Below are positions 29,371-46,138 of a DNA stretch of 58,427 bases, piece by piece; position 1 is the stretch's first letter, and each line of letters starts with the position of its first letter. Below the pieces are notes generated by a model, which saw nothing but the letters and a program-made list of their open reading frames with translations, was not told the DNA's origin and made no database searches. The position numbers and the translations under genes are program-made. Origin of the DNA: an uncultured Alphaproteobacteria bacterium (lineage in GTDB: Bacteria > Pseudomonadota > Alphaproteobacteria > CAAHEQ01 > UBA3637); contig CALXXA010000002.1 in NCBI GenBank assembly GCA_944392585.1, positions 1 through 58,427 of the forward strand, in the 5' to 3' direction.

Positions 29371-29373
29371 AAT

Positions 29374-30831
29374 TTACCTTTTTGTCGATTGATATAAGCT
29401 TAAATAAGCTCTTGCAGAACGTCCCCATGAAAAATCTTGATTCATTGCTTCTTTAATCATACCATCTATATGTTCCGGACGATCATAGTATGTTGAGTTT
29501 GCCCAACCGATTGTATTATATAAAGCTGAAGCCGAAATATCATAGAATTTAAATCCAGTCCCTGTCCCGTTTACCTCATTATAATTTTGAACAGTATCCG
29601 CCAAACCTCCGGTTGATCTTACTATAGGCAACGTCCCATATAATTGACTATACATTTGTTTCAACCCACATGGTTCATAAATAGAAGGAATAAGCGTAAA
29701 ATCACTTCCCGCATCTATTAAATGTTCTGTTGCCCCATGAAATCTACTGACGCTAATCTGCCCAGGATAATAATTAGGCAAATTCCCTAAATAGGCCTCT
29801 GCCCACAACTCTCCATCGCCCATAACTATGAATTGCGCCTGCATATTTTTTAAAACACCTTCTATACACTCGGTAAACATACGAATGCCTTTTTGTTCAG
29901 ACAACCGAACAACCATTGAAAATAAAGGCATATTATTATGAGAAAGACCAAATTTATCTCTCAGTACTTTTTTATTTTCCTGCTTCCCTTGCTTATATGT
30001 CTTAATGTTATATGGATACGCTATATGAGGATCTTGTGCAGGATCCCACAAATCCACATCGATTCCATTTAGTATTCCCGACAAATCACTTTGACGTTCT
30101 TTCAACAACCAATCTAAACCCGCTCCTCCCATTGGCGTTAAAATCTCTCTCGCATAATTCGGGCTGACTGTTGTTATTTTATCTGCGAATCGAATTCCGC
30201 CTTTTAACAAATTAACACGACCATAATTTTCGAAAGCCTCCATATTAAAATCCGCCCAATCTATTTTAGCATATGGAATAACCTCCGCATCATAAATCCC
30301 TTGATAAGGAAGATTATGTATTGTCAAAACACTTTTAGTCCCTTCAAAAAAAGAATCATGATCTTTTTTCAAATAGTATGGAATCAATGAGGTTTGCCAA
30401 TCATGCACATGGACAATGTCCGGCTTATAATTCATATCCTTTGCTAATTGTAACGCGGCTCTGCAAAAAAAAGCATACCGAAATGCGTTATCACGATATT
30501 CTTCGTGTGAATTTTTATCATCATAAACACCATATCTATCAAAGTATTTATGAAACTCAATAAAATATGCATCATAATGGCAGGGCGTTTCCGCATAATA
30601 CACACTATAAAACTCTTCACAATTACCCATCTTGACACAAGAACCGTCATACATCTTTGTCAAGTGATACTTTTCTCTGTTTATTAATGAATAAAGGGGC
30701 AAAATCAACTTAACTTGAGCCCCTTCTTTTTTCAAATACTTCGGTAACGCGGCAACAACATCTCCCAAACCGCCGGTTTTAATAAAAGGTGAAGCCTCGC
30801 TCCCTACAAAAAGTATCTTCATTTTTTTCAT
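29374..30831 (-). CDS. glgA: glycogen synthase (GT5)
   Basis: 485 aa. MKILFVGSEASPFIKTGGLGDVVAALPK, HDWQT, and the C-terminal PSIYEPCGLKQMY and TGGLADTV motifs. Confidence 0.9.
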   Translation of the reverse strand: MKKMKILFVGSEASPFIKTGGLGDVVAALPKYLKKEGAQVKLILPLYSLINREKYHLTKMYDGSCVKMGNCEEFYSVYYAETPCHYDAYFIEFHKYFDRYGVYDDKNSHEEYRDNAFRYAFFCRAALQLAKDMNYKPDIVHVHDWQTSLIPYYLKKDHDSFFEGTKSVLTIHNLPYQGIYDAEVIPYAKIDWADFNMEAFENYGRVNLLKGGIRFADKITTVSPNYAREILTPMGGAGLDWLLKERQSDLSGILNGIDVDLWDPAQDPHIAYPYNIKTYKQGKQENKKVLRDKFGLSHNNMPLFSMVVRLSEQKGIRMFTECIEGVLKNMQAQFIVMGDGELWAEAYLGNLPNYYPGQISVSRFHGATEHLIDAGSDFTLIPSIYEPCGLKQMYSQLYGTLPIVRSTGGLADTVQNYNEVNGTGTGFKFYDISASALYNTIGWANSTYYDRPEHIDGMIKEAMNQDFSWGRSARAYLSLYQSTKR

Positions 30832-30959: not shown

Positions 30960-32006
30960 TTATGTACTTTGTTTTTCTTCCGAACTGATTTCCTCCTCAT
31001 CAAGCAGATCCTGTATAGAAAGACCTTCCGATTCACCTTTTAATCCTTGAAATTGATTCCTCAAAAAATCTTCTAAATCAGAATCTTTTAAAACAAAACC
31101 GTTTTCTTTCTCTTGCTCTTCTTTAAGAGTATCCGCATTTAATAACTCTCCTCCTATAATTAACAAAACAGGACAAACAAATGCCCCCTCTTCCTTCATT
31201 CTCAAAACATGTGCCGCCTTACATAGCTGGTGAAAAGGTGATATAATTTGATCTTCCGCAGAATACCATTTTGGCAGTTCACTTTTTTTAAAAGAAGTAT
31301 CTTCTACAATCCATTCCGTTCCCGGTTTATCAAAAAAATCAAAAAGAAATGCTTTTGTATCCGTTGCTAAAACAATCGGAACAATATAACCCTCTAAAGC
31401 AACATTTTTAAAGACCTCTACCCCATATTGCTGTGCTTCTTTCTCTAAATAATTCATCCTTTCTTGGATACTTGTCTGATCGGAAGAATCCTTCTCTTTC
31501 TGATCCGATGATTTATCTTTAAAAGACTGTACAGGAGACACCGGAACAAAAGATCCACGCCCTGTCATAGGCATCGCTCTTGGTCGGAGCATTTTTCTCT
31601 CAGAAATGAGGGGACTTTTATCTCCCTTTTGCTCTGATTTCCTTTTTATCCTCCATTTAATCCGGCACAATTTATACCAACCCCACGCACAAATAGGAAA
31701 AAATAAAAAGAAACAACTTAATATTGAAAAATCATACAAACTGTTAATTGTCCAATTTTCAAACATAAACGCTTTATATAATTTTATCCAATCCTCAAAA
31801 GGATTGTATAGAACCCATCCTTGCTGTCCTACATGGATAAAAAAAAGATTAAAAGGTGTAACACCATATAACTTACAAACAAAACCGCCGACCAAAATAG
31901 TATAAATAATAAACCATACAATCCCTATGGCCAGTCTTGATATAACTCTCATAAGCACATCCCTCCCATTTTTTTTTAATATATCAGGCGGCTTTAAAGA
32001 GTACAA
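30960..32006 (-). CDS. hypothetical membrane protein
   Basis: 348 aa. About three N-terminal TM helices, a Ser/Asp/Lys-rich linker and an acidic C-terminus. No family recognised. Confidence 0.5.
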   Translation of the reverse strand: MYSLKPPDILKKNGRDVLMRVISRLAIGIVWFIIYTILVGGFVCKLYGVTPFNLFFIHVGQQGWVLYNPFEDWIKLYKAFMFENWTINSLYDFSILSCFFLFFPICAWGWYKLCRIKWRIKRKSEQKGDKSPLISERKMLRPRAMPMTGRGSFVPVSPVQSFKDKSSDQKEKDSSDQTSIQERMNYLEKEAQQYGVEVFKNVALEGYIVPIVLATDTKAFLFDFFDKPGTEWIVEDTSFKKSELPKWYSAEDQIISPFHQLCKAAHVLRMKEEGAFVCPVLLIIGGELLNADTLKEEQEKENGFVLKDSDLEDFLRNQFQGLKGESEGLSIQDLLDEEEISSEEKQST

Positions 32007-32012
32007 GTTCTT

Positions 32013-33791
32013 TTATAAAGAGTTCCCTCTCTCTTTCAATTCCTTGTTTACTTGTTTGTTTTCCTTGTTCGATGTTTTTTCTGTATTTTGCTTCATATTT
32101 TCTAACACTAATGTAACTGAAGTCAATTTTTCCTTTGTTTTTTCAAGCTCCTTAATAACTTTTGCCAAAGTTCTCTTTTCATTTTTCATTGTAAGAACAT
32201 TTCCTTTTTTATTCAAATCATCACAAGCGTCCTTCAAACTGCTTTTTTTCCTTGTAACCTTTGTACCTGTAGTAGATTTTCTACCTCTCTTCTTCTCTGT
32301 CTCAGGAATAACCGAAACCTCTTCTGTCATCTTCTGACTTGCCTCAGGACTTGCCATTCCTTCATTTTTTTTCATACTTGAAATATTCTCATTCTTTATT
32401 TCTTGATTTTTATTTGTTTCATAAAAAGCTTCCATATCTTTTTGAGTAAGATCATACGTCTTTGAAAAAGCTCCTTTAGGCATGTTAAATACCCCGGGAA
32501 TAGTTTGTGTAGACATATTACCCCTCGGCACAGCAGGAGTAGTTTTTAAAGAAGCGCTATTAGAAAGACTTGGCGCTTTGGGAGTAGACCAAAGAGGAAC
32601 GTTATTAGAAGGATCCGGTGCCTTGGGAGCAGACTCTGAAGAAGCGTTAGTAGCAACATTTGGAGCCATAGAGGTATATTCTAAAGGAACATTAAATAAT
32701 GTTGCCATCTGCCTATAACTATCCTGCATCTGAGTTACAGCAGGTTGAGAATTCTGACTAGTATAAGTGGCCAAGAGGCTATCAATCGCCGTAGGAATTT
32801 CAACAGAAGCTTTTTCTTTACCTTTTGTCATTCCAAAAAAATTCTTTCCTGTTTTCAAATTATCCCACGCATTTTTAAAATCATTTGTAATAGAGTGATG
32901 GAGTTTATTTTCTAGACTTTCTAATTCTTTTATTCCAAGTCTCAACCCATAAATTCCTTTTTGAGCCGGAGCATACATAATTATTTGGTCTGTTTTTGTA
33001 AATCCGCCTATTAAACCTTTTCTTTCGCGAACAGTCGGCATCCGTTCATAAATCACTGCGAAATTTTTTACTAATAACCGTTCTTTAAATAAGTTAATAT
33101 CCGATTCAGAATATTTCCCTTTTGGATCTTTTTGAATTCCTGATAACAAATCCGGATGCATATACATTAAATATCTTATTCTAAAAACTTCTGCATCTGC
33201 TTGAGAGTAAACTCCATTAGCATTTGGAAACAAATCTTTAAATAATTCTGGATTTGTCTGACGTAAACTATTTTCTTTATCTGCTATTCTTTTGGAAAGA
33301 ATTACCTCTTGCTGTCCCGTGTAACGTCCGTTATCAGAGGTTAATCCTTGATAAACATCTTCATTGTATCGTGCGATTAAACCTTGGGGACTATACAAAA
33401 AATCTCCTTGTATAGCTTGTAAAACATCCGACTCTGACAGCCCTTTTAACTTCCGCATGGAAGCGTTCCATAAAGCCGCTTTTTGATCTATATATTTAAT
33501 TTTTTCTTTTTTCTCTTCAAGGTACAAATCTGTCGTATATGCCGCATATGCAATGGGGAAAACCAAACATGCCATTAACAAAACATCCATTGCTTTATCT
33601 GGAGTTCCTTGTTCTAAAATATTTTTTATGATTTCTGCCCAAGAAGCCTCTGGATAATTTTCAGATTTCATTTTATCTTTATCGATTTTAGAAACGTATC
33701 CTTTCAACAAGTTTTCTTTTTCAATTTTCGGAGCACTCGGTAAAATACTGGCCGGAATTGAATTATTTGGGGTAACTTTTGTGTCTGGCAT
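32013..33791 (-). CDS. hypothetical protein with low-complexity and Lys-rich C-terminal half
   Basis: 592 aa. One hydrophobic helix near aa 70-90, a Ser/Pro/Ala-rich middle and a Lys/Glu-rich coiled-coil-like tail. No family recognised. Confidence 0.5.
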   Translation of the reverse strand: MPDTKVTPNNSIPASILPSAPKIEKENLLKGYVSKIDKDKMKSENYPEASWAEIIKNILEQGTPDKAMDVLLMACLVFPIAYAAYTTDLYLEEKKEKIKYIDQKAALWNASMRKLKGLSESDVLQAIQGDFLYSPQGLIARYNEDVYQGLTSDNGRYTGQQEVILSKRIADKENSLRQTNPELFKDLFPNANGVYSQADAEVFRIRYLMYMHPDLLSGIQKDPKGKYSESDINLFKERLLVKNFAVIYERMPTVRERKGLIGGFTKTDQIIMYAPAQKGIYGLRLGIKELESLENKLHHSITNDFKNAWDNLKTGKNFFGMTKGKEKASVEIPTAIDSLLATYTSQNSQPAVTQMQDSYRQMATLFNVPLEYTSMAPNVATNASSESAPKAPDPSNNVPLWSTPKAPSLSNSASLKTTPAVPRGNMSTQTIPGVFNMPKGAFSKTYDLTQKDMEAFYETNKNQEIKNENISSMKKNEGMASPEASQKMTEEVSVIPETEKKRGRKSTTGTKVTRKKSSLKDACDDLNKKGNVLTMKNEKRTLAKVIKELEKTKEKLTSVTLVLENMKQNTEKTSNKENKQVNKELKERGNSL

Positions 33792-33882
33792 GTTGAGCTC
33801 TCCTAATGTTTAATGTTTTTATATATCAATAAATTAATTTTATCATAAAAAAGATATTTTGTCTATTTCTTTTTGCCCCTTC

Positions 33883-34533
33883 TTATGCTTTTAGATTTTT
33901 TAAAAATTTTGCCAATTTTTCATTCTGTTTTTTTGCCTCTGCCGGAGATAAAATATTTTTTCCCTGGGAATCTGTCGTTATAATCGGAGAAAAATACGCT
34001 GGATTTGTAACTAAAACACTCCACGCCTCTTGCGGATTTTCATCAGCCATATTTAAGTAATTAGAAAGAAGCTTTTGAGCATTCACTGGAAATTTTTCTT
34101 TTTCAATTGCCGCAGCGAAAGAAAGAATAATTTCTTTTCTCTCCTCTGAATAAGAGTTAATTTTATTTTTAAAAGAGAGAAGTTGTTGTTCCAGTTTTTG
34201 CTTTTCTTCTTGAAAGGCTGAAATATCTTTATTGTGAATCGCTTGTACATATTCTATAAGCAATTTTCTCCAAAAATCGTCTTTTTGGTAATGTTTTTCA
34301 ATAGCTGCAATCATAGACGTCGTAGATATTTCTTTGACTTGAATTCCCAATAAGTACCCGATAATTTCCTTTGTATTGAAATCTATTTGAGGCATTAAAA
34401 CTTTTTCTGTTTCTTCCGTCACCTGTGTCGGATCTACTTTAAATGCAGGAGCTCCCTTTAAGACATCCTTATAACGCCATAATTGTGAATAAATCTCTAA
34501 GATTTGATTATTATAAATAGATTGTTCTGACAT
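33883..34533 (-). CDS. hypothetical protein
   Basis: 216 aa, helical/coiled-coil character. It is divergently transcribed from the VirB6-like array. No family recognised. Confidence 0.5.
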   Translation of the reverse strand: MSEQSIYNNQILEIYSQLWRYKDVLKGAPAFKVDPTQVTEETEKVLMPQIDFNTKEIIGYLLGIQVKEISTTSMIAAIEKHYQKDDFWRKLLIEYVQAIHNKDISAFQEEKQKLEQQLLSFKNKINSYSEERKEIILSFAAAIEKEKFPVNAQKLLSNYLNMADENPQEAWSVLVTNPAYFSPIITTDSQGKNILSPAEAKKQNEKLAKFLKNLKA

Positions 34534-34564
34534 TTTTCCCTCTTTAATAAAAAAACTACAAAAT

Positions 34565-34597
34565 ATTATAGACGAATGTTATTTTTAAGTCTATAAT
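34565..34597 (+). promoter_or_regulatory. candidate promoter with overlapping 9-bp inverted-repeat operator upstream of the VirB6-like array
   Basis: attatagac (34565-34573), 15 nt, then gtctataat (34589-34597), a perfect inverted repeat. The right arm contains TATAAT (34592-34597). TAGACG (34569-34574) sits 17 nt upstream as a -35 candidate. The ATG is at 34631. Confidence 0.4.
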
Positions 34598-34630
34598 TAA
34601 TGCAAAAATATTTTTAATTAAACGAGGCTG

Positions 34631-36334
34631 ATGATGAAGAAATTTTCTTATCCCGTTATTGCTTTTTTTATTGCTCTGCTGATTTTCCCGTCTATTGCAT
34701 TAGCCTTTGAACCTCTCTCCGCGGTACTTTTTACTCTAACAGGGGGTGCTGCCGTAACTCTTTTCGGAGCTATTTTAGTCGTTTATATCAATACAGGAGG
34801 ATCCGGATGTTGGTTTTGTCCGATATTTACCTCTGCCTTTGATACGATTAATGAAATTGCAACGACTCTTTTCCAAAGGTTAAGTATATCTTTTATGCCT
34901 TTCCTTGCGATAGGAGGTGCTCTTTGGATTCTTTTTATTGTCCTACGCTACGTCACAACTTTAAATGTACCTAACACCGGAGCTTTAATTCAATCGCTTT
35001 TTAACGTTCTCTGGAGAGTGGCCGTTGCAAGCATCATTCTAACGACTCCATTCACACTGAGAAGTGCTTCCATATTCGATTATACAATTAATCCTGTTAT
35101 TTCCTTTACCGGAGGTTTATCTTCCGAAATATTAAACGCTGCTGGATTAGGTAACGGATATGTTATAGAACGTAATAAAAATGATGAAGAGAAAAAACAC
35201 GAATTATGTGTACCATCTTCTGTTTCGGATCCTCGTTTTTTCCAAAACACCTTTGGAAATTACTTTAAAAGAAAAGCCTTAAACCAAGATGCTTATGACA
35301 GCATGTTATGTATGCTGAGAAAAATGAGCCTGGAACTTATTTTTGGAATTGGAATGGGATCAACTTTTATAATATCTGCTTTTACAACTAATTCTTCTCT
35401 TTTCTTTATTCCGGATTCTTCTTTGCTCATCTCCGGATTTGTCATATTTTTTAGCTACTTTGCTATGTTCATAATGTTCCCTTTTAAACTTATTGATATT
35501 TTAATTCGATTGGGCTTTGTTATTTCTTTAACCCCATTATTTGTTCTGTTCTGGACATTCCCTATCACTCGAGAATATGTTAAGAGAGGATGGGATATGT
35601 TTATTTCCTCAATGTTTACTCTTATCGCTTTATCTATTTTAATGGTTATTGCCATTCGGCTACTTTCTCAACCGGTGGCGGGAGGGAACATTCAAACAGT
35701 CGTAAAACTTTTAGCAGAAGGGAACGTATCAGAAGCAGGAGCAATCCTTTCAATTAGGGGAACAAGTCTTTTCATTATATTTATAGCAGCTTTCCTGTCT
35801 ATCAGAATTATAAGCATGGCTCCAGCCTTCGGCGCCTTGTTTGGAGGGGCAAGCATAAATAATACGCTTGGTAATGCATTATGGGAAACGACGTCTGGAA
35901 CAATTAAGACAATTTATAAAAACAGAAATATTGGGAGAAATCTCTATTCCTCTTTAAAATTAAGGAAAGGCGGAAACATTAACTCTGCTCCCAATCTAGA
36001 CTCAAAATCATCGAGAAGATTCCCAAGAAGACCCTCAGGAGGATTTGGTCCCGCAGGAACAAGAAATTTAGATACGCCACCGAGTACTCCGCCAACCAAA
36101 CCGTCTAACCTTTCTGAGACGACGCCCCCGAGTGTTTCGCCGACTGTAGGATCGACCATATCACTTACCCCGCCGCCTAGTATCTCTCCTAGTGTTTCTC
36201 CGAGTCTTTATAGTTCGAGAAATGCGGCAAGATCGAGAAAGAACGGGAGACTCCATGAAATGCGCCGCAACAATCTCTCTTCGGCTTCTTTAAGTCATAA
36301 CTTATCCTCTAGAAATAAAAGAAAGAAAAAATAA
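34631..36334 (+). CDS. VirB6/TrbL-like polytopic membrane protein, paralogue A, with Pro/Ser/Thr-rich basic tail
   Basis: 567 aa. FTSAFDTINEIATTLFQRL...GGALWILFIVLRY and LIRLGFVISLTPLFVLFWTFPITREYVKRGW parallel the Agrobacterium VirB6 N-terminal helix/LWI region and the GPLILVGYIFDRTRDIAAKW region as I recall them. CWFC motif at aa 60-63. Confidence 0.6.
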   Translation: MMKKFSYPVIAFFIALLIFPSIALAFEPLSAVLFTLTGGAAVTLFGAILVVYINTGGSGCWFCPIFTSAFDTINEIATTLFQRLSISFMPFLAIGGALWILFIVLRYVTTLNVPNTGALIQSLFNVLWRVAVASIILTTPFTLRSASIFDYTINPVISFTGGLSSEILNAAGLGNGYVIERNKNDEEKKHELCVPSSVSDPRFFQNTFGNYFKRKALNQDAYDSMLCMLRKMSLELIFGIGMGSTFIISAFTTNSSLFFIPDSSLLISGFVIFFSYFAMFIMFPFKLIDILIRLGFVISLTPLFVLFWTFPITREYVKRGWDMFISSMFTLIALSILMVIAIRLLSQPVAGGNIQTVVKLLAEGNVSEAGAILSIRGTSLFIIFIAAFLSIRIISMAPAFGALFGGASINNTLGNALWETTSGTIKTIYKNRNIGRNLYSSLKLRKGGNINSAPNLDSKSSRRFPRRPSGGFGPAGTRNLDTPPSTPPTKPSNLSETTPPSVSPTVGSTISLTPPPSISPSVSPSLYSSRNAARSRKNGRLHEMRRNNLSSASLSHNLSSRNKRKKK

Positions 36335-36345
36335 ACAGAACAACC

Positions 36346-37602
36346 ATGAAAAGCATATTAAACTATATTTTAAATAAAAAAATATTTTATGCCTTTCTTA
36401 TCTTGGTTGGGTGTGTTTTATTATCTGCCTGCGAATTCAAAGATTCCTATAACGCCGAAAAAGTTGCCGATGAAATGAGATCTATTCGCGGATGTTGGTC
36501 TTGTCAGGCATTTAGAACAGTTTACGACGCTGTCGGATCGGTTGCAAAAAGTGCCTACGAAAATATGCGCGTAATTGCTTTAAATCTTTTGGCAATATTT
36601 CTTGCTCTTTGGCTGCTTTTTAAAACTCTTTCTTTTATTACAATTATGAATATTCCGAATTATTCCAAATATTGGGTTGATGTTGCCAGGCGTATCATGC
36701 GTGCCGTTTTTGCCGGAGCCATTTTAATTAACACTCCTGTCATGATAAAATTTATAAACTTTATTGTTGAGCCTGTTTTCTTATTATTTATTTATCTTTC
36801 CATGCAAATAGTAAATGCAAATGATAACGCTTTTGCAGTTGGAGCTCTCATGGATGTCGGCTCTCAATTTCAAACAGACACTCCCTTCCCCGCGGGCGTA
36901 GGGAATCAACTTGAAAATTTGATTTATCGAATTCAGGTTGCTTTGGATATCGGTCGTTCTTTAGGTTTACGTATGATTATTCTCTCTGATTTCTCTGGTA
37001 TTTTTATTGGATTTTTTATTTTGATTATGTTCATTTCCTTATCAATCTTTTTCCCCTATTATTTTATAGATTCTCTTATACGGTTAGGATTTGTCATTAT
37101 TTTGTTTCCTCTTTTTGTTGTCGCCTGGGTATTCCCTAAAACAGTTATCATGTCTTTACTCGCCTGGAAAATTTTCTTTGCAGGTCTTGTCCAAATATTA
37201 ATCGGCTGTATATTTGCGGCTCTTTCTGTTTCTATTATTGAAGCTTATTCTCAATTACGCGGATATAATTTACTTCTAAATCCTATTTATCAAGATGCCA
37301 GCACAGAAACCATTCGTGAAATGACCCGAATGTCTGTATCATCTATATCTTTCCTGGTTCTATGTTTTTATATCAGTTTTCTTGCTATGAGAACTCAAAA
37401 GATAGCCGGATTTTTAACAGATTTACCAGCCACTTCTGTTCTGATTGGGATGATGGAAAAAGTAAAAAGTATCATGAAAGCCCTCCTTTATGCGGCCATT
37501 GCTACTGTTGCCACCTATTTTAGAATTCTTCCCATCGCAGCTGTTATGAAAAAGAAGGCATGGAAAGAGGCAAAAAACGCTATTATAAAAAATAACGGAT
37601 GA
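36346..37602 (+). CDS. VirB6/TrbL-like polytopic membrane protein, paralogue B (lipobox at N-terminus)
   Basis: 418 aa. Lipobox LLSAC, CWSC at aa 50-53, and LALWLLFKTLSF plus LIRLGFVIILFPLFVVAWVFPKT, all collinear with paralogues A and C. Confidence 0.6.
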   Translation: MKSILNYILNKKIFYAFLILVGCVLLSACEFKDSYNAEKVADEMRSIRGCWSCQAFRTVYDAVGSVAKSAYENMRVIALNLLAIFLALWLLFKTLSFITIMNIPNYSKYWVDVARRIMRAVFAGAILINTPVMIKFINFIVEPVFLLFIYLSMQIVNANDNAFAVGALMDVGSQFQTDTPFPAGVGNQLENLIYRIQVALDIGRSLGLRMIILSDFSGIFIGFFILIMFISLSIFFPYYFIDSLIRLGFVIILFPLFVVAWVFPKTVIMSLLAWKIFFAGLVQILIGCIFAALSVSIIEAYSQLRGYNLLLNPIYQDASTETIREMTRMSVSSISFLVLCFYISFLAMRTQKIAGFLTDLPATSVLIGMMEKVKSIMKALLYAAIATVATYFRILPIAAVMKKKAWKEAKNAIIKNNG

Positions 37603-37609
37603 GGGAAAA

Positions 37610-40435
37610 ATGATAAAGAAAACATTCTATCTTCTCATTCTTTTCCTTCTGGTTTTTTTAGCGGCTCATATTAACACTCAGTATTTTCCTTACATTGGAA
37701 TTACCGCTGTTTTTATCATTATCCTGTGCCTTGGATATGCCATTCATAAAACAAAATTATTTTATTATTCTAAAAAAGTTATTGTGTTCTTATTATTTTC
37801 TCTTTCCTTTTTTTACTTAACCTCGGCGTCTCCTGTTCTTGCACAAACATCAGAAACAACTCAGTCTGGGGGAACATTTTTTAAAAGTTTATTTTCTCAA
37901 GATGCAAAGCCATCTTTGGAAGAACAAATTCAAAAAGTTGGAAACGAGTTCCATAAAATATGGCGAATTTTGCCTGAAACCAGGACAGAAGAACAACAAA
38001 AAAAATATGATCAACTCAAGAAGCAATTAGAAAATCTTCTAAAGAAAAAAGCGAAAGAAGATAAAAAAGAAAAAGCAAAAACTCAATGTAAAACACCGCA
38101 TGAACTCTTGAGAGAAGTACAAAACGATTGTTGGTCTTGTGATTTAACTTATATAATTATTGAAGCTATAGATGGCGTCGCCACTTCCTTTTTTAATAAG
38201 GTTCAAGAAAATAACTACGCTTTAATCATCCTGGGTCTTGGATTTGCTTTTTGGTTATTATTCAATATCTTAAAATTTTTCACCTCTTGGCTTTTGACAG
38301 ACTTAGGAGAAGTATGGACAACGATATTTCGAAAACTTATACTCGTTATTTTCGCGGCGGCTCTTCTTATTTCTCCAATACGTCAAGTTTTTGATTGGAT
38401 ATTAACCCCCTTCTTTTCTTTTTCCGCTGCTATCAGTATGGAAATAGCAAACATCTCCACATTTGGGAATAACGTTTCTAAAATTGATGAATCGCTTTCA
38501 AAAACTTTAGAAGTTAACCCTATTGAATGTTCTTACTGCACAGCCATGAAAAAATCAGACGCAGCAGTTCCCTCTCCTAAAAACATAGAGAACGTTGATG
38601 TTCTAAACGCCCCTTCCATTCAAGACAGAGTTTTTTCATCTCAAATAAAAAACTCTATGTTATGTATCGTATGCTCGTTATATCGAACTATCTCGCCTCC
38701 TATTATTATCGGACAATCATTACTATGTTACTCCACTACCGAAGGAGCCTATTCTTTCCCTCCGAAATGGATTATCGGAGTTCCTGTCAGATTACAAATT
38801 CCCAACATGCTGATGTATACAGCGGGAATTGTCATTATTATCGTATTTATTCTTATAACCATTTTATTTCCACTTTTTTTAGTTGATGCCTTCTTTAGAA
38901 TAGGGTATGTTGCGACATTAATGCCCTTTTTGATTGTTGCATACGTTTTTGAATCAACTCGTATATATGCCAAAAATTCATTTAGAATAGTTCTACACGC
39001 TTTAAGCACCTTTTTATTTGTATCGATTATGTTTACTCTGTTGGTTCAAGTATTCTATACATCTTTAAGTTCCGACACACAAGCCATTACAAACGCGCTG
39101 GCCAGCAATGATATAAAAAGCTTATTTAACATATTTGTCCTTAATTCAGGATTTTTCCCTCTTTTAATGTGTATTTTTATTGGTTTTTTAGCCGTAAAAA
39201 TGATGTTTTTAATGGACGAGATAAGTAGTGAGTTAACAGCTATTAACCTGGAGAGCACTGGTGGAATTGGAGCCCTTATATCCGCTATAGATGTTATTAA
39301 ATCCCCAATGCCCGTAGTCAGTGAAATTTATGATGAAACCTGGGGATATGTCGGTTCGAAACGTGTCCCTCTTAACGCTCCGGAACTTCCCAAATATCAC
39401 AGTGCGGAAGCAAAATCTCGCCTTATTCGTTTAAAATCATATCAGAAATTTAACAAATATGCGGACAGCGTTGTTTCCTTCGGAGCCTCTCCGGCTCTTT
39501 CTGTTGAAGAAGAAATTCAAGCCACCGGAAATGTTTTTTCTAATAAAATTTACAATTTTAGAAGATCTATCATTCACAAAATTAATGAAATCGGTAAAAA
39601 TTCCACTGAAGGATTAAAAAGAACTGGGACAGAAATTAATTCTTTATTATCTAATATCTTTGGTCTGAACAATGTTTCTAAGACACCTTATTCCCAAAAC
39701 AAAGATCAAAAAACAAACAAAAAAGTTCAAAATATCTTCAAGCATCAAGGCTCCTCGAATATATTAAATAAAATACTAAACCTTTTTGCTCTCGGTAGTA
39801 ATGTTATCATCCTCCCTTTAATCGTACTAACCAAAACAGTCCAATTTGCTTCTTTACTTTCCGTTAAAGCCTTATTTGGAGTAATTTCCTTTGTGACACG
39901 CAAAGGAACTTATGTAACGCAAAAGACAGCTTCAGCGGCTATATCACTTCCCGGAAGATTAACTGCTTTAGGCCTCCAAAAAGCCGGTAAGTTAATTGCT
40001 CAAAACAAATACTTCACCAAAACAGCCGGAGCTACAAATAGTCTTGTTCTTGGAGCCATCGCCGGGACTGTTTTGGGAATTGCTCATTTCGCCTCCGGAC
40101 TAGGCAGTCTTGTTCCGGGATCCTCTCGTTCCAAAAAAGGTTTTTCTTTGGAAGGGAGAGATTTATCTTCTAAAGAAAATGAACTTCGAGTCGCTCGAAT
40201 TAAATTACAAGATTTGCATGATAAACGCCGCTCTATAGAAGTCAAACGTTATCTCTTGCTCGGTAAAGGGGTCTTATCTGAGAAAGACACTGCGGAATTA
40301 GCGTCAATAGAATCCGATTGGTCTCAAATGCTGAGCGAAATTACTTATTTTGAATCTATTGTAGCTTCTTTAGAATCAGAAGTATCCCACTTAAAAGAAA
40401 ATATTAGAAAACATCACAACGAACAGAAATCTTGA
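37610..40435 (+). CDS. VirB6/TrbL-like polytopic membrane protein, paralogue C, with long N- and C-terminal extensions
   Basis: 941 aa. CWSC at aa 174-177, FAFWLLFNILKF, and FFRIGYVATLMPFLIVAYVFESTRIYAKNSF (compare the VirB6 YIFDRTRDIAAKW region). A C-terminal extension of about 400 aa ends in a coiled coil, an architecture like the enlarged VirB6 paralogues of Rickettsiales. Confidence 0.6.
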   Translation: MIKKTFYLLILFLLVFLAAHINTQYFPYIGITAVFIIILCLGYAIHKTKLFYYSKKVIVFLLFSLSFFYLTSASPVLAQTSETTQSGGTFFKSLFSQDAKPSLEEQIQKVGNEFHKIWRILPETRTEEQQKKYDQLKKQLENLLKKKAKEDKKEKAKTQCKTPHELLREVQNDCWSCDLTYIIIEAIDGVATSFFNKVQENNYALIILGLGFAFWLLFNILKFFTSWLLTDLGEVWTTIFRKLILVIFAAALLISPIRQVFDWILTPFFSFSAAISMEIANISTFGNNVSKIDESLSKTLEVNPIECSYCTAMKKSDAAVPSPKNIENVDVLNAPSIQDRVFSSQIKNSMLCIVCSLYRTISPPIIIGQSLLCYSTTEGAYSFPPKWIIGVPVRLQIPNMLMYTAGIVIIIVFILITILFPLFLVDAFFRIGYVATLMPFLIVAYVFESTRIYAKNSFRIVLHALSTFLFVSIMFTLLVQVFYTSLSSDTQAITNALASNDIKSLFNIFVLNSGFFPLLMCIFIGFLAVKMMFLMDEISSELTAINLESTGGIGALISAIDVIKSPMPVVSEIYDETWGYVGSKRVPLNAPELPKYHSAEAKSRLIRLKSYQKFNKYADSVVSFGASPALSVEEEIQATGNVFSNKIYNFRRSIIHKINEIGKNSTEGLKRTGTEINSLLSNIFGLNNVSKTPYSQNKDQKTNKKVQNIFKHQGSSNILNKILNLFALGSNVIILPLIVLTKTVQFASLLSVKALFGVISFVTRKGTYVTQKTASAAISLPGRLTALGLQKAGKLIAQNKYFTKTAGATNSLVLGAIAGTVLGIAHFASGLGSLVPGSSRSKKGFSLEGRDLSSKENELRVARIKLQDLHDKRRSIEVKRYLLLGKGVLSEKDTAELASIESDWSQMLSEITYFESIVASLESEVSHLKENIRKHHNEQKS

Positions 40436-40464
40436 AAATTACATTTTCAATTAACTCTAACGTT

Positions 40465-40491
40465 CTTTAAAAGAGCTTTCTCCTTTTAAAG
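40465..40491 (+). terminator. weak AT-rich hairpin after the VirB6-like array
   Basis: ctttaaaag (40465-40473) pairs with cttttaaag (40483-40491) around a 9-nt loop, 30 nt after the stop of paralogue C. The stem is AT-rich and the T-run is poor. Confidence 0.3.
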
Positions 40492-40591
40492 AAATAACTT
40501 TTTCAAAAAAAAATTCATTTTTTTTATTTTTTGTCTATTTTCTCATGAAAAAATCTGCTATAAAGAAATACGATAAAAAGGAGGTAAATCT

Positions 40592-41563
40592 ATGGAAGAA
40601 ATTATTTTCCCTAATCAAATTCGTATGATTCGCCGAACACGCGGTAAAACGATGAAAGAAATTGCCAGCATTTTGAATGTTAGTTTATCTGCCATCAGCA
40701 AAATAGAAAAAGGATATCGACGTATTGATGATAAACAATTGACACAAATAGCTCAATTTCTAGCATGTCCCAAAGAAAGTATTTTTGTTGTGGAACAAAC
40801 CTCTCAACCGGAAGTCTTACAGGCTTGGCAAAGGGAACAAAACCGGCGGAAACAAATTAATGAAAAAAGTGGTTTAAAGACATTAGGTGCCGGATTAAGG
40901 TACATTCGCGGAGAAAAGATGCTTACATTATATGATGTTTCTAAGAAAGCTGGAATGACTCTTTCCGTATATCATAGAATAGAGATCGGACAACGTGAGG
41001 TTACAGAGGAACAATTAAATAATATTGCTCATGCTTTAGGTTATACTCTAGAAACACTCCAGATAAGAATTTATGAGTTGGACATGGCCGGCTCTTTACA
41101 GGAATTTAAAAAAATAGGGAAATCCGGAATTTTCCACCCTAAAGGAGGATATAATGATCTACCCGTTACTTCTCTCGCTATGCATTTCTATCAACGAATC
41201 CCCGTTATAGGAATATGTGAAACAAACGGAACTGTTATCATTCCAGATCAAACATCTCTCCCACAAATAGAACCTAGTTTCATAAATAAAGAATCTCTTT
41301 ATGGTATTCAAATTAATTCAACCTGTCTTGGCTTCTCATTCCCACAACATCGAACCACTCTTATTGCCGATAAAAGCCAACGCCCATCAGATGGAGATAT
41401 AGCTCTATTTCATAAGGGAACACAATCTATTGCGGTTGGAATATGTAAAAAAGAAAATAATTCAGACATCTTTTTTATTCAGAAGAATCCAGATCGCAAA
41501 ATAAAATTATCCAGATCGGAATTGGAAAAATTAGATAAAGTAACTTATATTCAAATTACGTAG
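40592..41563 (+). CDS. XRE-family regulator with two HTH domains and a C-terminal S24/LexA-like domain lacking an obvious catalytic Ser
   Basis: 323 aa. HTH 1 is IRMIRRTRGKTMKEIASILNVSLSAISKIEKGYR. HTH 2 is LRYIRGEKMLTLYDVSKKAGMTLSVYHRIEIGQR. The C-terminal roughly 130 aa begin IPVIGICETNG and end with a beta-rich region like CI/LexA C-domains, but I see no GDSM-type Ser motif. AAGGAGG RBS. Confidence 0.75.
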   Translation: MEEIIFPNQIRMIRRTRGKTMKEIASILNVSLSAISKIEKGYRRIDDKQLTQIAQFLACPKESIFVVEQTSQPEVLQAWQREQNRRKQINEKSGLKTLGAGLRYIRGEKMLTLYDVSKKAGMTLSVYHRIEIGQREVTEEQLNNIAHALGYTLETLQIRIYELDMAGSLQEFKKIGKSGIFHPKGGYNDLPVTSLAMHFYQRIPVIGICETNGTVIIPDQTSLPQIEPSFINKESLYGIQINSTCLGFSFPQHRTTLIADKSQRPSDGDIALFHKGTQSIAVGICKKENNSDIFFIQKNPDRKIKLSRSELEKLDKVTYIQIT

Positions 41564-41586
41564 CTATAATGGACAAAGGGTAAATA

Positions 41587-42384
41587 ATGGCTGATATTAA
41601 AACATGGAAAAAAGATTTCCTCGCTGAGCGTAAGAAAAAAGAAGAAGCTCCTTCTTCCATTGCTCAACGTTTTATCAATATCTACCGCCAGCTCCCAATC
41701 CTAGGAGAAGAAGCTGTTAAAAAATATAATGACTTATTAATATCACAAACAACCGCAGAAGTTTTAATCGCTCTAACAAACTTACCAGGCGGGGAAGAAA
41801 TCAGAGAGTATATCAATTTTTTAAAACATAAGAATTTAGAAGAAAGAGAAGAACTGGAATCGAGTCAAAAAGCAAACTTATCTCTCCCCAAAGCAGAAGA
41901 ATTATCTCCTTTGTGGGAAACATTGGGAATAAATTCCGTTTCTCATGTAAATGCACAAACGGCCGTCAATGATGTTGTTCAAACTGTTATTTCGATAGGG
42001 AAAAAAGATATTGAAAACCTAAAAAAACAAATTCTTCCTTTTATTCATCGACAAAATGAAGACGTTTCCAACATCTTAAAGTATATCATCGTTGATTCTG
42101 ATATAGAAAAAATGCAACAGACTCTAACCCAGGCTATAAAGAAAATATCTTCCCTTCAAGAAAATAATGAACGCATTTTGAATTCTTTATTTGAACAAGC
42201 GGAAGTTAATCGTCTTTTTTCTCAAGAAGATATAATTTCCTCAAAGGAGAAACAAGAAAATAATATAAATACGCCTAAAAAATCTTCTCCGTCAAAAGCT
42301 GTTTTTACAGCGACAACAAAAAATAAACGGCTTCATCCATTACCAAAATATTCCGTTGATTTAATAGAGGAGGAAGACAGCTGA
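41587..42384 (+). CDS. hypothetical coiled-coil protein
   Basis: 265 aa, Glu/Lys-rich helical, starting 23 nt after the regulator gene. No family recognised. Confidence 0.5.
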   Translation: MADIKTWKKDFLAERKKKEEAPSSIAQRFINIYRQLPILGEEAVKKYNDLLISQTTAEVLIALTNLPGGEEIREYINFLKHKNLEEREELESSQKANLSLPKAEELSPLWETLGINSVSHVNAQTAVNDVVQTVISIGKKDIENLKKQILPFIHRQNEDVSNILKYIIVDSDIEKMQQTLTQAIKKISSLQENNERILNSLFEQAEVNRLFSQEDIISSKEKQENNINTPKKSSPSKAVFTATTKNKRLHPLPKYSVDLIEEEDS

Positions 42385-42445
42385 TTTTAAGCAATCATTA
42401 ACCTTCTTATTTTATATATAAATATAGTTTTTATGTGAGGAAAAA

Positions 42446-43951
42446 ATGCCAACCCAGGAACAACTAAAACCACTAATAGAAGCTTTAACAGCATACAAAC
42501 AAGATCAACAAACGTTACAACCTGTCGTAGATACGGCTTTGACTATTTATGGGCAAGATTGGACAACTGCTTTAGCAAACGATCTAGAAAATTTACAAAA
42601 CGTTGACACGACAACCTTAACATTTTTAAAAGAAAAAGCAAATCATGCTATTTATTACTATGGAGCCCTGACTGCTTGGGAAGAGGCTCATCATTACTTA
42701 AATTCAACAAATCCTATTGATCCAAACTTATTAAAAGAACGCTTGCCTATTTTAGAATATTGGTTATCTTTATTCGGAGATGAAGGAAACAAGGTAAATG
42801 GAAAATTAAAGCAACTTTTTGTTAATATTTCTCCTGTACAACCGGGGGAAACTTCTTCACTGTCTTCCGAAACATTGAAGGGGGATTCGGATATCTCTGC
42901 AGACAATCAAGAGACTTCCTCTATTCAACAACTACATAATGACCGATCCGAAGTAGAACCGGTTGCGGAAATGACATCTTCTTTTGAAACCTCTGACAGT
43001 TCTTCCCCCGCCGTGAAATTAGAGGAGAAAGAATCCTTACCCCAAAGCTCCCTTTCGGAGGAGTCCGCTCCTTTTTATCCAGCAAATATTTCCGAAGATA
43101 CTCGTTTAAGTGAAGAAGATATACTAGAAGCAACCGCTTATTCTTCACAACCTGAATTGGGAAATATAGAAAATCAAGAAGAAAATACAAGTTTTCCAGT
43201 CCAAGAAGAACCGGATTCGGAATATCCGCTAGAAGAACAAAATACTTCTTTTAACGAAACAGAACCTTTAGAAGATGAGTTGATAGAAACGTCTGAACAG
43301 CCGACAGTTTCTGTTCCAGAAATCGTTCAGGAAGATCTAAATGTGGTTCCATCGCAAGAGATATCCGAAAAAGGAGATTCTTCAAAGAATTGGGAAATAA
43401 ATAATTATTTAAAAGAAAAAGAACTATATGAACAAGTTGTCGCATGGGTTACGGCGAAATGTATTCGCATGGGAAATATTGAATTAACAGCCTATCCACA
43501 TTATGGTTTTATTGTCGATTTAATGCAATCTTTAAAAGAGAATATCCAAAATTTATTAAGCAACCCACTACTTACCGAGATTATAGAAACACAGTTAAAA
43601 GAAGGTCGTAAAGGATTAGAAGGTTTTTTAAAAGTTCTTGAAACGGAATTAGCACACTTACCCGAGATAGAGAGTCAACCTTCGGATGCGATTATAGAAG
43701 GAATAGATGCGCGCTCTATTCTAGGGCAAATAGACACCAGCAATAAAAAAGAATATTTAGGTCCGGCTCCAGATGGATTTGAGTTGATTGAGGATCCTTA
43801 TGAGAAAAAAGAAGATATCGCCAAAGAAGATCTCTTAAAAGCATATGAAAAAGCCGAAGAAGATACGGGAGATTCAATAAACCATTTAAATATTCTGGAA
43901 GAAGAAACTTCACAATCTCAAGAAACCCAAACAACACCACGGAAAGGATAA
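42446..43951 (+). CDS. hypothetical highly acidic protein
   Basis: 501 aa. The central roughly 200 aa are extremely Glu/Ser/Pro-rich and look disordered, flanked by helical N- and C-terminal domains. No signal peptide seen. Confidence 0.5.
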   Translation: MPTQEQLKPLIEALTAYKQDQQTLQPVVDTALTIYGQDWTTALANDLENLQNVDTTTLTFLKEKANHAIYYYGALTAWEEAHHYLNSTNPIDPNLLKERLPILEYWLSLFGDEGNKVNGKLKQLFVNISPVQPGETSSLSSETLKGDSDISADNQETSSIQQLHNDRSEVEPVAEMTSSFETSDSSSPAVKLEEKESLPQSSLSEESAPFYPANISEDTRLSEEDILEATAYSSQPELGNIENQEENTSFPVQEEPDSEYPLEEQNTSFNETEPLEDELIETSEQPTVSVPEIVQEDLNVVPSQEISEKGDSSKNWEINNYLKEKELYEQVVAWVTAKCIRMGNIELTAYPHYGFIVDLMQSLKENIQNLLSNPLLTEIIETQLKEGRKGLEGFLKVLETELAHLPEIESQPSDAIIEGIDARSILGQIDTSNKKEYLGPAPDGFELIEDPYEKKEDIAKEDLLKAYEKAEEDTGDSINHLNILEEETSQSQETQTTPRKG

Positions 43952-43956
43952 ACAGA

Positions 43957-45450
43957 ATGCATATGAGATATATTTTAATGACTTGCATTTTAGCTTCTAC
44001 AAGTCTCGCTTTATTAGCGTGTCAACATCGAACAGCATCTTTACCTTATATGACAAAGGCTTCTTATATATCCTCTCCGGATTTTTCGAAGTCTGAAACA
44101 GGATTTTTATCGTCTCCGAGTTTAGAAAAACAAAACCCACTTCAAACTTCATCATCTTTTTATACTCCGCAAAGAAATTCTTCATACAAAGGAGTAAATA
44201 ATGCGGGAATAGTTCCTGTTATTAAGGGGAAAGAAGATTCGATCCATCCGCAAGGAGAGAATAATTATTATAGCTCACGACAGACTCGGTCGGCAGAGTT
44301 AACGCCTCAGGATATAAGAACGTCGCCACAAAAGCAGCTGCCTTGCACTCAATCGAAAGTTCCCCCTATGTTGCAAGGACAAACTTCAACGGACATGGTT
44401 AATATAGAAACGCCAATGCGCTGTCGTGTTCCGGAGCCGACATCTCGCATTATTTCAGATATTCCTTTAACACAGGGAGATTTTGAACTGACTCGAGTAG
44501 AAGAAAATGATGCTCTGCCACGTTATGAAGTCAATGGATATACCTTTGATAATCAACCTTTAGATATGGCGATTCAAGTTCTTGTATCCGAAGCAGATAT
44601 AAATGTCTATTCAGATGATGGCTTATTTCCCGATATGTCGGCACAAGATATCAGAGGAGAATTATCAGCTGTTATAGAAGAACTGACAGATTCGGCAGAT
44701 GCCTATGCTCATTATGACGCGAGTAAAAAAAGGTTGTATTTGTCTCACTGGGCTCGGTTTAGATTAAAAGTCCCCGGAGGATATATAGGAATGTATGCAG
44801 TTTTAGACGCCTTAAGAGGAGCTAATATTACGAACGTACAACCTGATTGGGGACAAAATGAACTTTATTTCCGTGTGACGAAATCACAAGAAGCCATTAT
44901 TCGCCGTTTAATTTCTTATTTGAAAGAAGATCCTCGTCTTTTAATGCTTGACATAAACGTTTATAAAGTTTACCCCAAAGGGGGTGCAAATATCTCATGG
45001 AGAAACGTTATTCAAAGCTTCGGAGATTATAAAGTGAATATGTCCATAAACGGTCTGCAAGGACGAATGATTATAACCGATCATCAAGAAGAGCAAAATT
45101 CATTTTTAAATAATCTAAAAGCATACGCTCAAGTTGATTTAGTTTCAAAAGGCGTCGCTGTTATGCCTAACGGATGGAAAGTTCGTTTTGACATAGGTCA
45201 GTGTTCATTTACAAACACTCCAGAAAAAGATTTATCTCTGCTATTACAGAGCAAAATACAAAGCACAGACCGCATAGAATCGAACATTGCGTTAGATACA
45301 GTGAATGGAGAAGTAACATCTTTTTACTCATTTTACAGTATAGATGATGATTTAAATATTGTCGGTATCCCCGGCACAGTTTTCAATCAAAGCACCGTCA
45401 TAGAGTATTTCATTACGATGAAACCTCGGATTATGCGTCTTATAAAATAA
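43957..45450 (+). CDS. outer-membrane lipoprotein with secretin-like N0 and C-terminal domains (type IVb PilN/BfpB/TcpC-style)
   Basis: 497 aa. Lipobox SLALLAC and a disordered Ser/Pro/Gln linker. FDNQPLDMAIQVLVSEADINVYSDD...LSAVIEELTDSADAYAHYDASKKRLYL resembles a secretin N0/NolW-like domain. LMLDINVYKVYPKGGANISW ... FLNNLKAYAQVDLVSKGVAVMPNGWKVRFDIGQ ... NIVGIPGTVFNQSTVIEYFITMKPRIM follows the order of the secretin-domain consensus. Recognition is by eye only. Confidence 0.5.
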   Translation: MHMRYILMTCILASTSLALLACQHRTASLPYMTKASYISSPDFSKSETGFLSSPSLEKQNPLQTSSSFYTPQRNSSYKGVNNAGIVPVIKGKEDSIHPQGENNYYSSRQTRSAELTPQDIRTSPQKQLPCTQSKVPPMLQGQTSTDMVNIETPMRCRVPEPTSRIISDIPLTQGDFELTRVEENDALPRYEVNGYTFDNQPLDMAIQVLVSEADINVYSDDGLFPDMSAQDIRGELSAVIEELTDSADAYAHYDASKKRLYLSHWARFRLKVPGGYIGMYAVLDALRGANITNVQPDWGQNELYFRVTKSQEAIIRRLISYLKEDPRLLMLDINVYKVYPKGGANISWRNVIQSFGDYKVNMSINGLQGRMIITDHQEEQNSFLNNLKAYAQVDLVSKGVAVMPNGWKVRFDIGQCSFTNTPEKDLSLLLQSKIQSTDRIESNIALDTVNGEVTSFYSFYSIDDDLNIVGIPGTVFNQSTVIEYFITMKPRIMRLIK

Positions 45451-45466
45451 AATAAAAGGGAAAGAA

Positions 45467-46138
45467 ATGACTATAGAAAAGAAACCTATATTAAAAGCAC
45501 CGATGCCTCCTTCTGGAATAAAGTCTCCGGCGGAAGCGAAGATATCCGCCTATACTCCAAGCATGAAAACAAATTCATTACCGAATGAAGTTGCATCAGG
45601 GAATCCGGGACAAAATACATCTATGCCACAACCTTCGTATGGATTAAGGGGAGAAGATTCTTCTGGGAATAAGCCGGAGAATTTTTCAAAGAATCAATTG
45701 ACGGAGGAACAACCCTCTGTATCGCCCGGTTCTGGTCTATATGATAATAATTTTGCGGCTCAATTTAATTTACCGCCCTCTATATTGACGACCAAAGCGA
45801 TGAGTTTTATTCTTGCGGGAGTATTCTTTTTTGGGATTATATTTGGAGCGAATGTTTTCGGAACCAGTACAACGACACATGGTCTACAAGGAGTTATTTT
45901 GAATCCTGGAGTTCCAGAAGGAAGGAAGCGCTGTGGGATAGCCGAAAAGACAGAAGGATGTGTTTTATTTATGATGAATGCATCACAACGGGACAGAGAA
46001 GTTCGTTCATTTTATGAACAAGCAGCGGCGATAACGAATGTTCCGGCGTATACCATAGAAATGGGAAATATCACATATGCGTCAACAATTATTCGTCCTG
46101 GCTATTTTGCACAAATAAATATTCCTCCGATACGGTAA
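45467..46138 (+). CDS. bitopic membrane protein (disordered N-terminus, one TM helix, about 90-aa C-terminal domain)
   Basis: 223 aa. Single TM helix MSFILAGVFFFGIIFGANVF. It starts 16 nt after the secretin-like gene and is the last gene of that operon. Confidence 0.45.
   Translation: MTIEKKPILKAPMPPSGIKSPAEAKISAYTPSMKTNSLPNEVASGNPGQNTSMPQPSYGLRGEDSSGNKPENFSKNQLTEEQPSVSPGSGLYDNNFAAQFNLPPSILTTKAMSFILAGVFFFGIIFGANVFGTSTTTHGLQGVILNPGVPEGRKRCGIAEKTEGCVLFMMNASQRDREVRSFYEQAAAITNVPAYTIEMGNITYASTIIRPGYFAQINIPPIR

Follow-up and report, generated by a model that had tools for sequence, protein, structure and literature searches.

Tandem VirB6-like paralogues with a CWxC motif, encoded beside a secretin-fold lipoprotein in a conserved gene cluster of uncultured Alphaproteobacteria

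Three adjacent genes of an uncultured alphaproteobacterium, here called A, B and C, encode diverged VirB6-like membrane proteins that share an N-terminal CWxC motif. They lie on the + strand between positions 34631 and 40435 of a 58,427-nt stretch of DNA (GenBank assembly GCA_944392585.1, contig CALXXA010000002.1, positions 1 to 58,427), the whole of which is referred to below as the window. A, B and C represent three types, long diverged from one another, of a large, uncurated TrbL/VirB6 subfamily, and their array is part of a conserved, vertically inherited chromosomal cluster of ~15 kb (30960–46138), which also encodes lipo497, an outer-membrane lipoprotein with a predicted secretin fold. 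The explanation that we consider the best overall, held with belief and doubt about evenly balanced, is that the A, B and C types of this conserved cluster form a VirB6-like inner-membrane platform coupled to the secretin. VirB6 is the least understood core part of type IV secretion. In type IV secretion systems (T4SSs) it forms an inner-membrane pentameric platform at the base of the stalk, and a role as a platform for pilin recruitment and as a substrate funnel has recently been proposed for it (PMC12624023). The subfamily described here is set apart by an invariant periplasmic CxxC, by tandem arrays of distinct types, by synteny with a secretin, and by the absence of any ATPase or T4SS gene from the loci examined.

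Array of three ancient paralogues

Open reading frame (ORF) calls place paralogue A (567 aa) at 34631..36334, paralogue B (418 aa) at 36346..37602, and paralogue C (941 aa) at 37610..40435, all on the + strand and separated by gaps of 11 nt (A–B) and 7 nt (B–C). An earlier reading of the letters made without database searches (the sequence-only reading) had described three collinear ORFs of these lengths with two shared conserved blocks and a lipobox in B, and all of these were found. In the alignment of A, B and C, the first block, ALW(I/L)LF or AFWLLF, follows the first helix, and the second reads (L/F)(I/F)R(L/I)G(F/Y)V..L.P(L/F)..V..(W/Y)(T/V)F(P/E).T. BLASTP aligned A with B at E 1e-23 (25% identity, 391 columns), A with C at E 8e-21 (22% identity, 340 columns), and B with C in two blocks (E 7e-12 and 1e-07). 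The E-values are far beyond chance, so the paralogy is genuine, and at an overall pairwise identity of 22–26% the copies have diverged too far to stem from a recent duplication. Judged by their sequences, A, B and C are true, ancient paralogues; a recent-duplication artefact was ruled out by these identities together with the conserved orthology of the three genes.

Paralogue A has a signal-like N-terminus and a Gly-rich hydrophobic segment, followed by CWFC at aa 60–63, a VirB6-like polytopic core reaching to ~aa 440, and a basic C-terminal tail that is rich in Pro and Ser. Paralogue B is a lipoprotein-type VirB6-like protein with hardly more than the core; its lipobox LLSAC, with Cys29, is encoded at 36418..36432 (+). 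In paralogue C, the N-terminal part consists of a hairpin of two transmembrane helices, a signal-like segment, a ~95-aa periplasmic coiled region, and CWSC. The VirB6-like core follows, with two further CxxC motifs in a periplasmic loop, and then a 370-aa C-terminal extension containing additional hydrophobic segments and a coiled coil.

Members of the family were typed by their best match to A, B, or C. A-like members mostly carry CWFC and have a median length of 654 aa. B-like members, with a median of 418 aa, carry CWSC or CWPC and have a lipobox in 30 of 36 cases, and C-like members have a median of 888 aa and at least three CxxC motifs in 10 of 18 cases. The A-B-C order is preserved in the related loci L001 and L005–L010 (L numbers denote loci of relatives), and both this order and the type-specific features are conserved across species. 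The window holds three copies; L002, L009, L010, L014, and L026 hold three to five, the more distant loci having four or five. Region 221–11959 of L014 contains five or six tandem VirB6-like paralogues of 452–942 aa, three of which are without any CxxC.

Small two-transmembrane hairpin proteins (61–92 aa) are encoded by a gene of their own just upstream of the last paralogue in L011, L012, L014, and L026; those at L011 566–751, L014 9742–10020, and L026 9770–9991 have a basic C-terminal tail. C of the window begins with a fused hairpin of this kind (37610–37840), which stands ahead of the signal-peptide-like segment. The hairpin could be a VirB2- or VirB3-like partner.

Relationship to VirB6/TrbL proteins

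The sequence-only reading had called the three proteins VirB6/TrbL-like. This identity is backed by remote homology only, and a direct match to PF04610 (TrbL/VirB6) is absent. An exhaustive search with the family profile over 1.84 billion representatives detected at least 1,888 clusters (50% identity) at E ≤ 1e-3 and 658 at E ≤ 1e-30, while an earlier word-indexed search had returned 12–15 close relatives only. The VirB6-like CWxC family is large. Scanning A, B, and C against Pfam-A (E ≤ 10) and NCBIfam gave no TrbL/VirB6 model, no other T4SS model, and nothing else of relevance.

An AlphaFold2 model of B, based on a 19-sequence family alignment, was all-helical, with a mean predicted local distance difference test score (pLDDT) of 68.5 and a predicted template modelling score (pTM) of 0.59. 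In a Foldseek search of the PDB with this model, stalk chains of R388 TrwI/VirB6 occupied ranks 1–8 and 11 (E 7.9e-4 to 0.65, probability 0.96–1.0), with a target-normalised template modelling score (TM-score) of 0.52–0.61 over ~315 columns. TrwI was the best and the only consistent structural match of the B model. Ranks 1–8 had E-values of 7.9e-4 to 0.12 and a probability of 1.0, with no redox enzyme among them, and the best unrelated match had E 0.5 and a probability of 0.1.

Scanned individually, 26 of 68 relatives matched PF04610 at E ≤ 0.01 (best E 6.3e-7), and these matches fall on profile positions ~66–191 of 215. The sole relative above the cut-off was P0072, which scored 29.8 bits against a gathering score of 25.9. 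For a profile–profile comparison, canonical VirB6 was represented by R388 TrwI and eight plasmid VirB6/TrbL proteins, the latter all encoded adjoining virB5/eex and virB8. Aligned with this nine-sequence profile by hhalign, the family profile reached a probability of 90.2% and E 1.6e-6 over 143 columns; against the TrwI sequence alone the match was weak (probability 7%), the comparison being informative with the nine-sequence profile only. The alignment pairs aa 212–365 of B (36979..37440, +), a segment containing FPYYFIDSLIRLGFVIILFPLFVVAWVFPKT, with residues 133–275 of TrwI/VirB6. The family side of the aligned core reads FP..(L/F)ID..(I/F)R(L/I)G(F/Y)V..L.P(L/F).(V/I)..W(V/T)FP.T, and the TrwI side reads ...LAGLGPLFILALIWQPTHRFF. 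The similarity thus falls on the second conserved block, at the (G)P(L/I)F...W..P.T helix, which is where a resemblance to VirB6 had been suspected from the letters.

A conserved Trp in the transmembrane/cytoplasmic core region is reported to be essential in Agrobacterium tumefaciens VirB6 (PMC2653234). In the family, the Trp of A/L-W-V-F-P-x-T (W261 of B) is invariant or nearly so, with Tyr in paralogue C, and hhalign places W261 at most two residues from the TrwI Trp of LIWQPT; W261 is a possible equivalent of the essential Trp. Because the Foldseek result, the PF04610 matches of the relatives, and the profile–profile alignment converge, we regard membership of A, B, and C in the TrbL/VirB6 superfamily as very probable, as a subfamily beyond the reach of curated models. 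As far as the model and the alignments go, the VirB6 fold is common to the three proteins, and so is the C-terminal core motif (P-L-F ... W..P.T).

Convergence on a generic polytopic helical bundle would be the alternative: A, B, and C would then be an unrelated membrane family, for example of redox or transport proteins with a catalytic CxxC such as DsbB or VKOR. This would agree with the missing direct Pfam match and with a Foldseek E-value of ~1e-3 obtained from a model of moderate confidence, and DsbB and VKOR do have a CxxC where a membrane helix begins on the periplasmic side. We nevertheless consider convergence very unlikely, as three independent methods point to VirB6 and do so in the same sequence segment, the top eight structural matches are VirB6 throughout with zero redox enzymes, and no quinone-binding or thioredoxin-like partner was identified.

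In its architecture, TrwI/VirB6 of R388 (PDB 7O3V, 8RT9) resembles A, B, and C in being a polytopic helical inner-membrane protein with a periplasmic N-terminus and a predicted cytoplasmic C-terminal tail. Unlike canonical VirB6, however, A, B, and C have the invariant N-terminal periplasmic CWxC, carry Sec or lipoprotein signal peptides, are 1.2–2.7 times longer, and belong to a subfamily that occurs as three to five distinct tandem paralogues. Every canonical virB6 gene that we fetched was flanked by virB5/eex/virB8, whereas none of these genes was present beside the array.

The CWxC motif

The motif is encoded at 34808..34819 in A (CWFC), at 36493..36504 in B (CWSC), and at 38129..38140 in C (CWSC), all on the + strand and exactly at the nucleotides claimed by the sequence-only reading. 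The two extra CxxC motifs reported for C were also confirmed: CSYC (38528..38539, +; aa 307), located in a loop between core helices, and CIVC (38663..38674, +; aa 352). In C-type orthologues the second motif is kept as CSYC or CPYC and the third as CIIC or CIVC.

The first motif occupies an invariant column of the family alignment. All 82 aligned family members have both C50 and C53, and conservation of W51 is at least 90%; CWFCP(I/V)F is the form seen most often. None of the nine canonical VirB6 proteins has an N-terminal CxxC, and TrwI has one Cys in the whole protein. The presence of the CxxC in all 82 relatives and its absence from the canonical proteins identify CWxC as a family signature and not as a duplication artefact.

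A single signal-like hydrophobic segment precedes the motif in 73 of the 82 members, and the B-type is free of hydrophobic segments from the lipobox Cys29 up to the motif. With one signal-like segment ahead of it and with the B-type members being lipoproteins, the motif is therefore predicted to be extracytoplasmic, on the periplasmic side, where the first core helix begins. Among the exceptions are paralogue A and five other members, in which a second, Gly-rich hydrophobic segment stands before the motif. In the B model, CWSC caps the N-terminal end of a helix of 49 residues (51–99, pLDDT ~80) that runs into the first transmembrane span.

A periplasmic CxxC at the N-terminus of a helix has the geometry of disulfide and redox motifs, and we infer that CWxC forms a structural or inter-protomer disulfide. 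A heme-c site (CxxCH) was rejected, the residue after the motif being P, Q, or D and never His. In the literature searched there was no description of a CWxC signature or of a cysteine motif in VirB6; the one occurrence of the word "cysteine" found in the 2009 rvh paper concerns VirB9/VirB7 and not VirB6 (PMC2653234).

A lone CFFC-type member was seen in a distant anaerobe (L013 1–506), near [FeFe]-hydrogenase genes; it is above the Pfam TrbL threshold. The ORF before it ends in a typical outer-membrane beta-barrel C-terminus (...AKFAF).

Conserved gene cluster and its secretin-fold lipoprotein

The loci could be read as the 58-kb window plus 20-kb pieces of relatives, and the family query gave five genome loci. 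The genes flanking the array had been described as orphans. They are without Pfam matches, yet at least six other loci have their orthologues in the same order. The full order is g348, g592, and g216 on the - strand followed by A, B, C, a helix-turn-helix (HTH) regulator gene HTH323, g265, g501, lipo497, and g223 on the + strand, and it was found in L001, L005, L006, L007, L009, and L010. The core of it (g216, array, HTH gene, g265, g501, lipo497, and g223) is kept in the much more distant L026, on a 318-kb contig.

The gene of lipo497 (43957..45450, +) was located downstream of the array in every locus extending far enough. The protein has a lipoprotein signal with the lipobox LLACQ, and a ~125-aa disordered linker, followed by N0-like and ring domains as well as a secretin barrel. 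In its AlphaFold2 model, residues 160–497 (the 340 C-terminal residues) had a pLDDT above 90. The 24 best Foldseek matches were all secretins (E 7e-10 to 7e-5), among them PilQ of Vibrio cholerae and Pseudomonas aeruginosa, BfpB, InvG, ExeD/EpsD/GspD/XcpQ/PulD, and phage pIV. Global TM-scores were low, which we read as an effect of the domain packing of a monomer model, and the secretin match is accordingly drawn from the consistency and the E-values of the matches. Against Pfam, lipo497 gave no Secretin-family match and just a spurious sub-threshold one to MAGI_u1, and a PDB sequence-profile search returned nothing. On the strength of its model, lipo497 is a secretin-fold outer-membrane lipoprotein.

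It shares N0/ring domains and a barrel with secretins generally (PilQ, GspD, InvG, and pIV) and a lipoprotein signal with BfpB of type IVb pili (PDB 9U5S), and its C-terminal "...IGIPG...ITxKPR", read by eye, is reminiscent of a secretin C-terminus. Unlike in pilus and secretin systems, its cluster is without a pilin gene, a GspE/PilB-type ATPase gene, or a GspF/PilC platform gene, and its inner-membrane partners appear to be VirB6-like. The outer-membrane core of a canonical T4SS is formed by VirB7, VirB9, and VirB10, and a secretin is not listed there (PMC12624023).

The secretin gene is always followed by g223 (45467..46138, +). The g223 product is bitopic: a Pro-rich N-terminus in the cytoplasm is linked by one transmembrane helix to a ~95-aa periplasmic domain with two invariant Cys. 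Its position suggests that g223 may be a connector from the inner membrane to the secretin.

Absence of T4SS genes from the loci

As the sequence-only reading had noted for the window, no virB3 or virB4 lies beside the array, and this holds for ~12 related loci as well. Neither the 58-kb window nor the 10 kb around the array in these ~12 loci yielded a match to any T4SS Pfam family, no VirB5-like gene was identified, and no Walker A motif was found in any cluster protein. The array could still be the VirB6 set of a dispersed rvh-type T4SS, with VirB4, VirB11, VirD4, and the VirB7–B10 core encoded elsewhere in the genome; its nearness to the secretin would then reflect a separate system or co-regulation. 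We consider this possible but rather doubtful. It accords with A, B, and C being VirB6 homologues, with an alphaproteobacterial host that has ankyrin-repeat proteins, and with an examination that covered 58 kb of the genome. Tandem sets of three to five enlarged paralogues with extensions are, moreover, the hallmark of Rickettsiales RvhB6a–e (PMC2653234).

The likeness to these proteins is considerable: RvhB6a–e also form alphaproteobacterial tandem arrays of enlarged VirB6-domain paralogues, 674–1154 aa in length, with long N- and C-terminal extensions, and the paralogues are likewise old and individually conserved (PMC2653234). However, the RvhB6 proteins owe their annotation to the VirB6/TrbL domain and form part of an rvh T4SS that is recognisable as such, and the Rickettsiales arrays are treated together with virB3–virB4 (PMC2653234), whereas the array described here has neither virB3 nor virB4 and clusters with a secretin and a double-HTH regulator. 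Its upstream neighbour, in the window (g216) as in the ~12 loci, is a divergently oriented gene, and its synteny with the secretin extends across deep divergence. The subfamily is also well separated from canonical VirB6.

Evolution of the cluster

Cluster proteins (30960–46138) were compared with the products of neighbouring genes at 28465–30831 for their identity to L001. The former showed 40–79% identity, against 94% for the adjacent glgA and 77% for a DAP-dehydrogenase-like gene. The cluster is evolving at a much higher rate than the housekeeping genes next to it, which fits envelope or host-exposed proteins.

An origin from a mobile or conjugative element was rejected: no integrase or relaxase was seen at the locus, its GC content equals that of the flanks, and five species-level relatives have it at the same chromosomal place beside glgA. 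A phage origin was rejected too, as PHROG matches were confined to the HTH regulator.

Fast evolution relative to the housekeeping neighbours would also suit exapted VirB6-fold anchors that are no part of a transport machine. Such anchors would display variable extensions at the surface, in the periplasm, or in the cytoplasm, or would serve envelope maintenance, and the conserved neighbours would be loosely related in function. The extensions are indeed highly variable in length and composition (relatives range from 400 to more than 1100 aa), and the cluster is without an ATPase. On the other hand, it is the membrane core with its invariant residues that is conserved and not the extensions, and three types in fixed order together with the secretin/g223 pair favour a multi-subunit assembly. 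We therefore regard exaptation as unlikely.

Other genes of the cluster

The product of HTH323 (40592..41563, +) is a regulator in which two HTH_3 domains are combined with a C-terminal domain. No other cluster gene is as well conserved (79% identity to L001), and wherever a locus extends far enough, the distant L012 and L026 included, HTH323 comes directly after the array. Its weak NCBIfam similarities, including those to Wmk and TrbA, are matches at the level of the HTH only. Between HTH323 and lipo497 lie two genes for conserved cluster proteins, g265 (41587..42384, +), with no known domain, and g501 (42446..43951, +), acidic and partly of low complexity.

On the other side of the array, g216 (33883..34533, -) encodes a soluble helical protein; its gene runs in the opposite direction, away from the array, and adjoins it in nine loci, including the distant L026. 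Profiles of g216 and g223 gave no match among PDB sequences. Between g216 and A lies a divergent intergenic region of 97 nt (34534..34630), which contains promoter-like hexamers. At 34565–34597, the hexamer pairs TAGACG-17-TATAAT (+) and TAGACT-17-TATAAT (-) overlap; these are consensus matches only. Beyond g216, the fast-evolving g592 (32013..33791, -) has 40% identity to its L001 orthologue and is found in closer relatives only. The outermost gene, g348 (30960..32006, -), encodes a membrane protein with N-terminal transmembrane helices and a conserved C-terminal soluble domain and is conserved in seven loci. By eye, its pattern recalls a NERD or nuclease-like fold, with no profile match backing this.

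Proposed envelope-spanning apparatus

Taking the cluster as a whole, we tentatively propose, with somewhat more doubt than belief, that 30960–46138 encodes an undescribed envelope-spanning apparatus, a hybrid of a T4SS-type part and a part of the type II secretion system/type IV pilus type, with no cluster-encoded ATPase, which would be widespread in uncultured gut Alphaproteobacteria; the same tentative proposal holds that arrays of this VirB6-like subfamily occur in many other uncultured bacteria. In the explanation that we consider the best, A, B, and C would build a joint hetero-oligomeric platform or channel in the inner membrane, as the VirB6 pentamer suggests by analogy. A CWxC disulfide, within a chain or between protomers, could cap or lock the periplasmic end of helix 1, and further Cys pairs in periplasmic loops of A and C might act likewise. 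The platform would be joined across the periplasm to the secretin, possibly via g223, giving an envelope-spanning conduit. HTH323 would control expression from the divergent promoter region. The acidic and fast-evolving products of g592, g501, and g265 would be candidates for the cargo, as would a polymer made of the small two-transmembrane hairpin. No description of a VirB6–secretin combination or of this gene cluster was found in the literature searched.

Several points weigh against a VirB6-like platform coupled to a secretin. The physical coupling of the array to lipo497 is deduced from conserved synteny. A dedicated ATPase is, to our knowledge, common to all secretin systems and all VirB6 systems, and the cluster encodes none. 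A canonical T4SS may be located elsewhere in the genome; that the array is part of a T4SS is itself unproven, because no other T4SS gene was seen and a secretin is in the cluster. As for the relationship to VirB6, hmmscan of A, B, and C with PF04610, which the sequence-only reading had proposed as a check, gave no match at E ≤ 10, the confidence of the B model is moderate with borderline Foldseek E-values, and a PDB sequence-profile search found TrwI at E 4.6 with a 3-sequence profile and not at all with 19 or 68 sequences. The three L014 copies without CxxC are very divergent, so the motif is not universal among the most divergent copies. The distant arrays L013, L014, L023, and L025 have no adjoining secretin in the sequence at hand, and no RNA sequencing runs with the locus were found.

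If these proteins do act without a T4SS, the VirB6 fold has a life outside canonical T4SSs, and secretins may possess an unrecognised kind of inner-membrane partner. If the array belongs to a dispersed T4SS instead, the CWxC subfamily would offer a new marker by which divergent T4SSs of uncultured gut bacteria could be traced. Present-day Pfam and NCBIfam models fail to pick up these proteins at all.

Host and surroundings of the cluster

The window is alphaproteobacterial chromosome, with GcrA, the str operon, groEL, glgA, and polA and a GC content of ~35%. Relatives carrying the array are metagenome-assembled genomes designated "uncultured Alphaproteobacteria", and the locus is present in chicken and bird gut metagenomes. 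GCA_964322955.1 is one of the assemblies in which the cluster occurs. Two independent cluster-bearing bins, L002 (JGI 3300042659) and L008 (CAZXTR010000036.1), are labelled Lactobacillales, the others Alphaproteobacteria. Both are probably misclassified, because their proteins have Gram-negative features (lipoproteins, and a secretin in related loci).

Directly after the cluster, a Cys-rich secreted protein of 251 aa is encoded at 46228–46983 (-). The next gene (47002–49869, -) encodes a 955-aa protein with a sub-threshold match to Galaxin-like repeats, parts of which are related to a protein encoded near the cluster in L001 and L005. Ankyrin-repeat proteins of 340 and 436 aa are encoded at 2081–3103 (-) and 56891–58201 (-), respectively, and hint at an interaction with eukaryotic cells.

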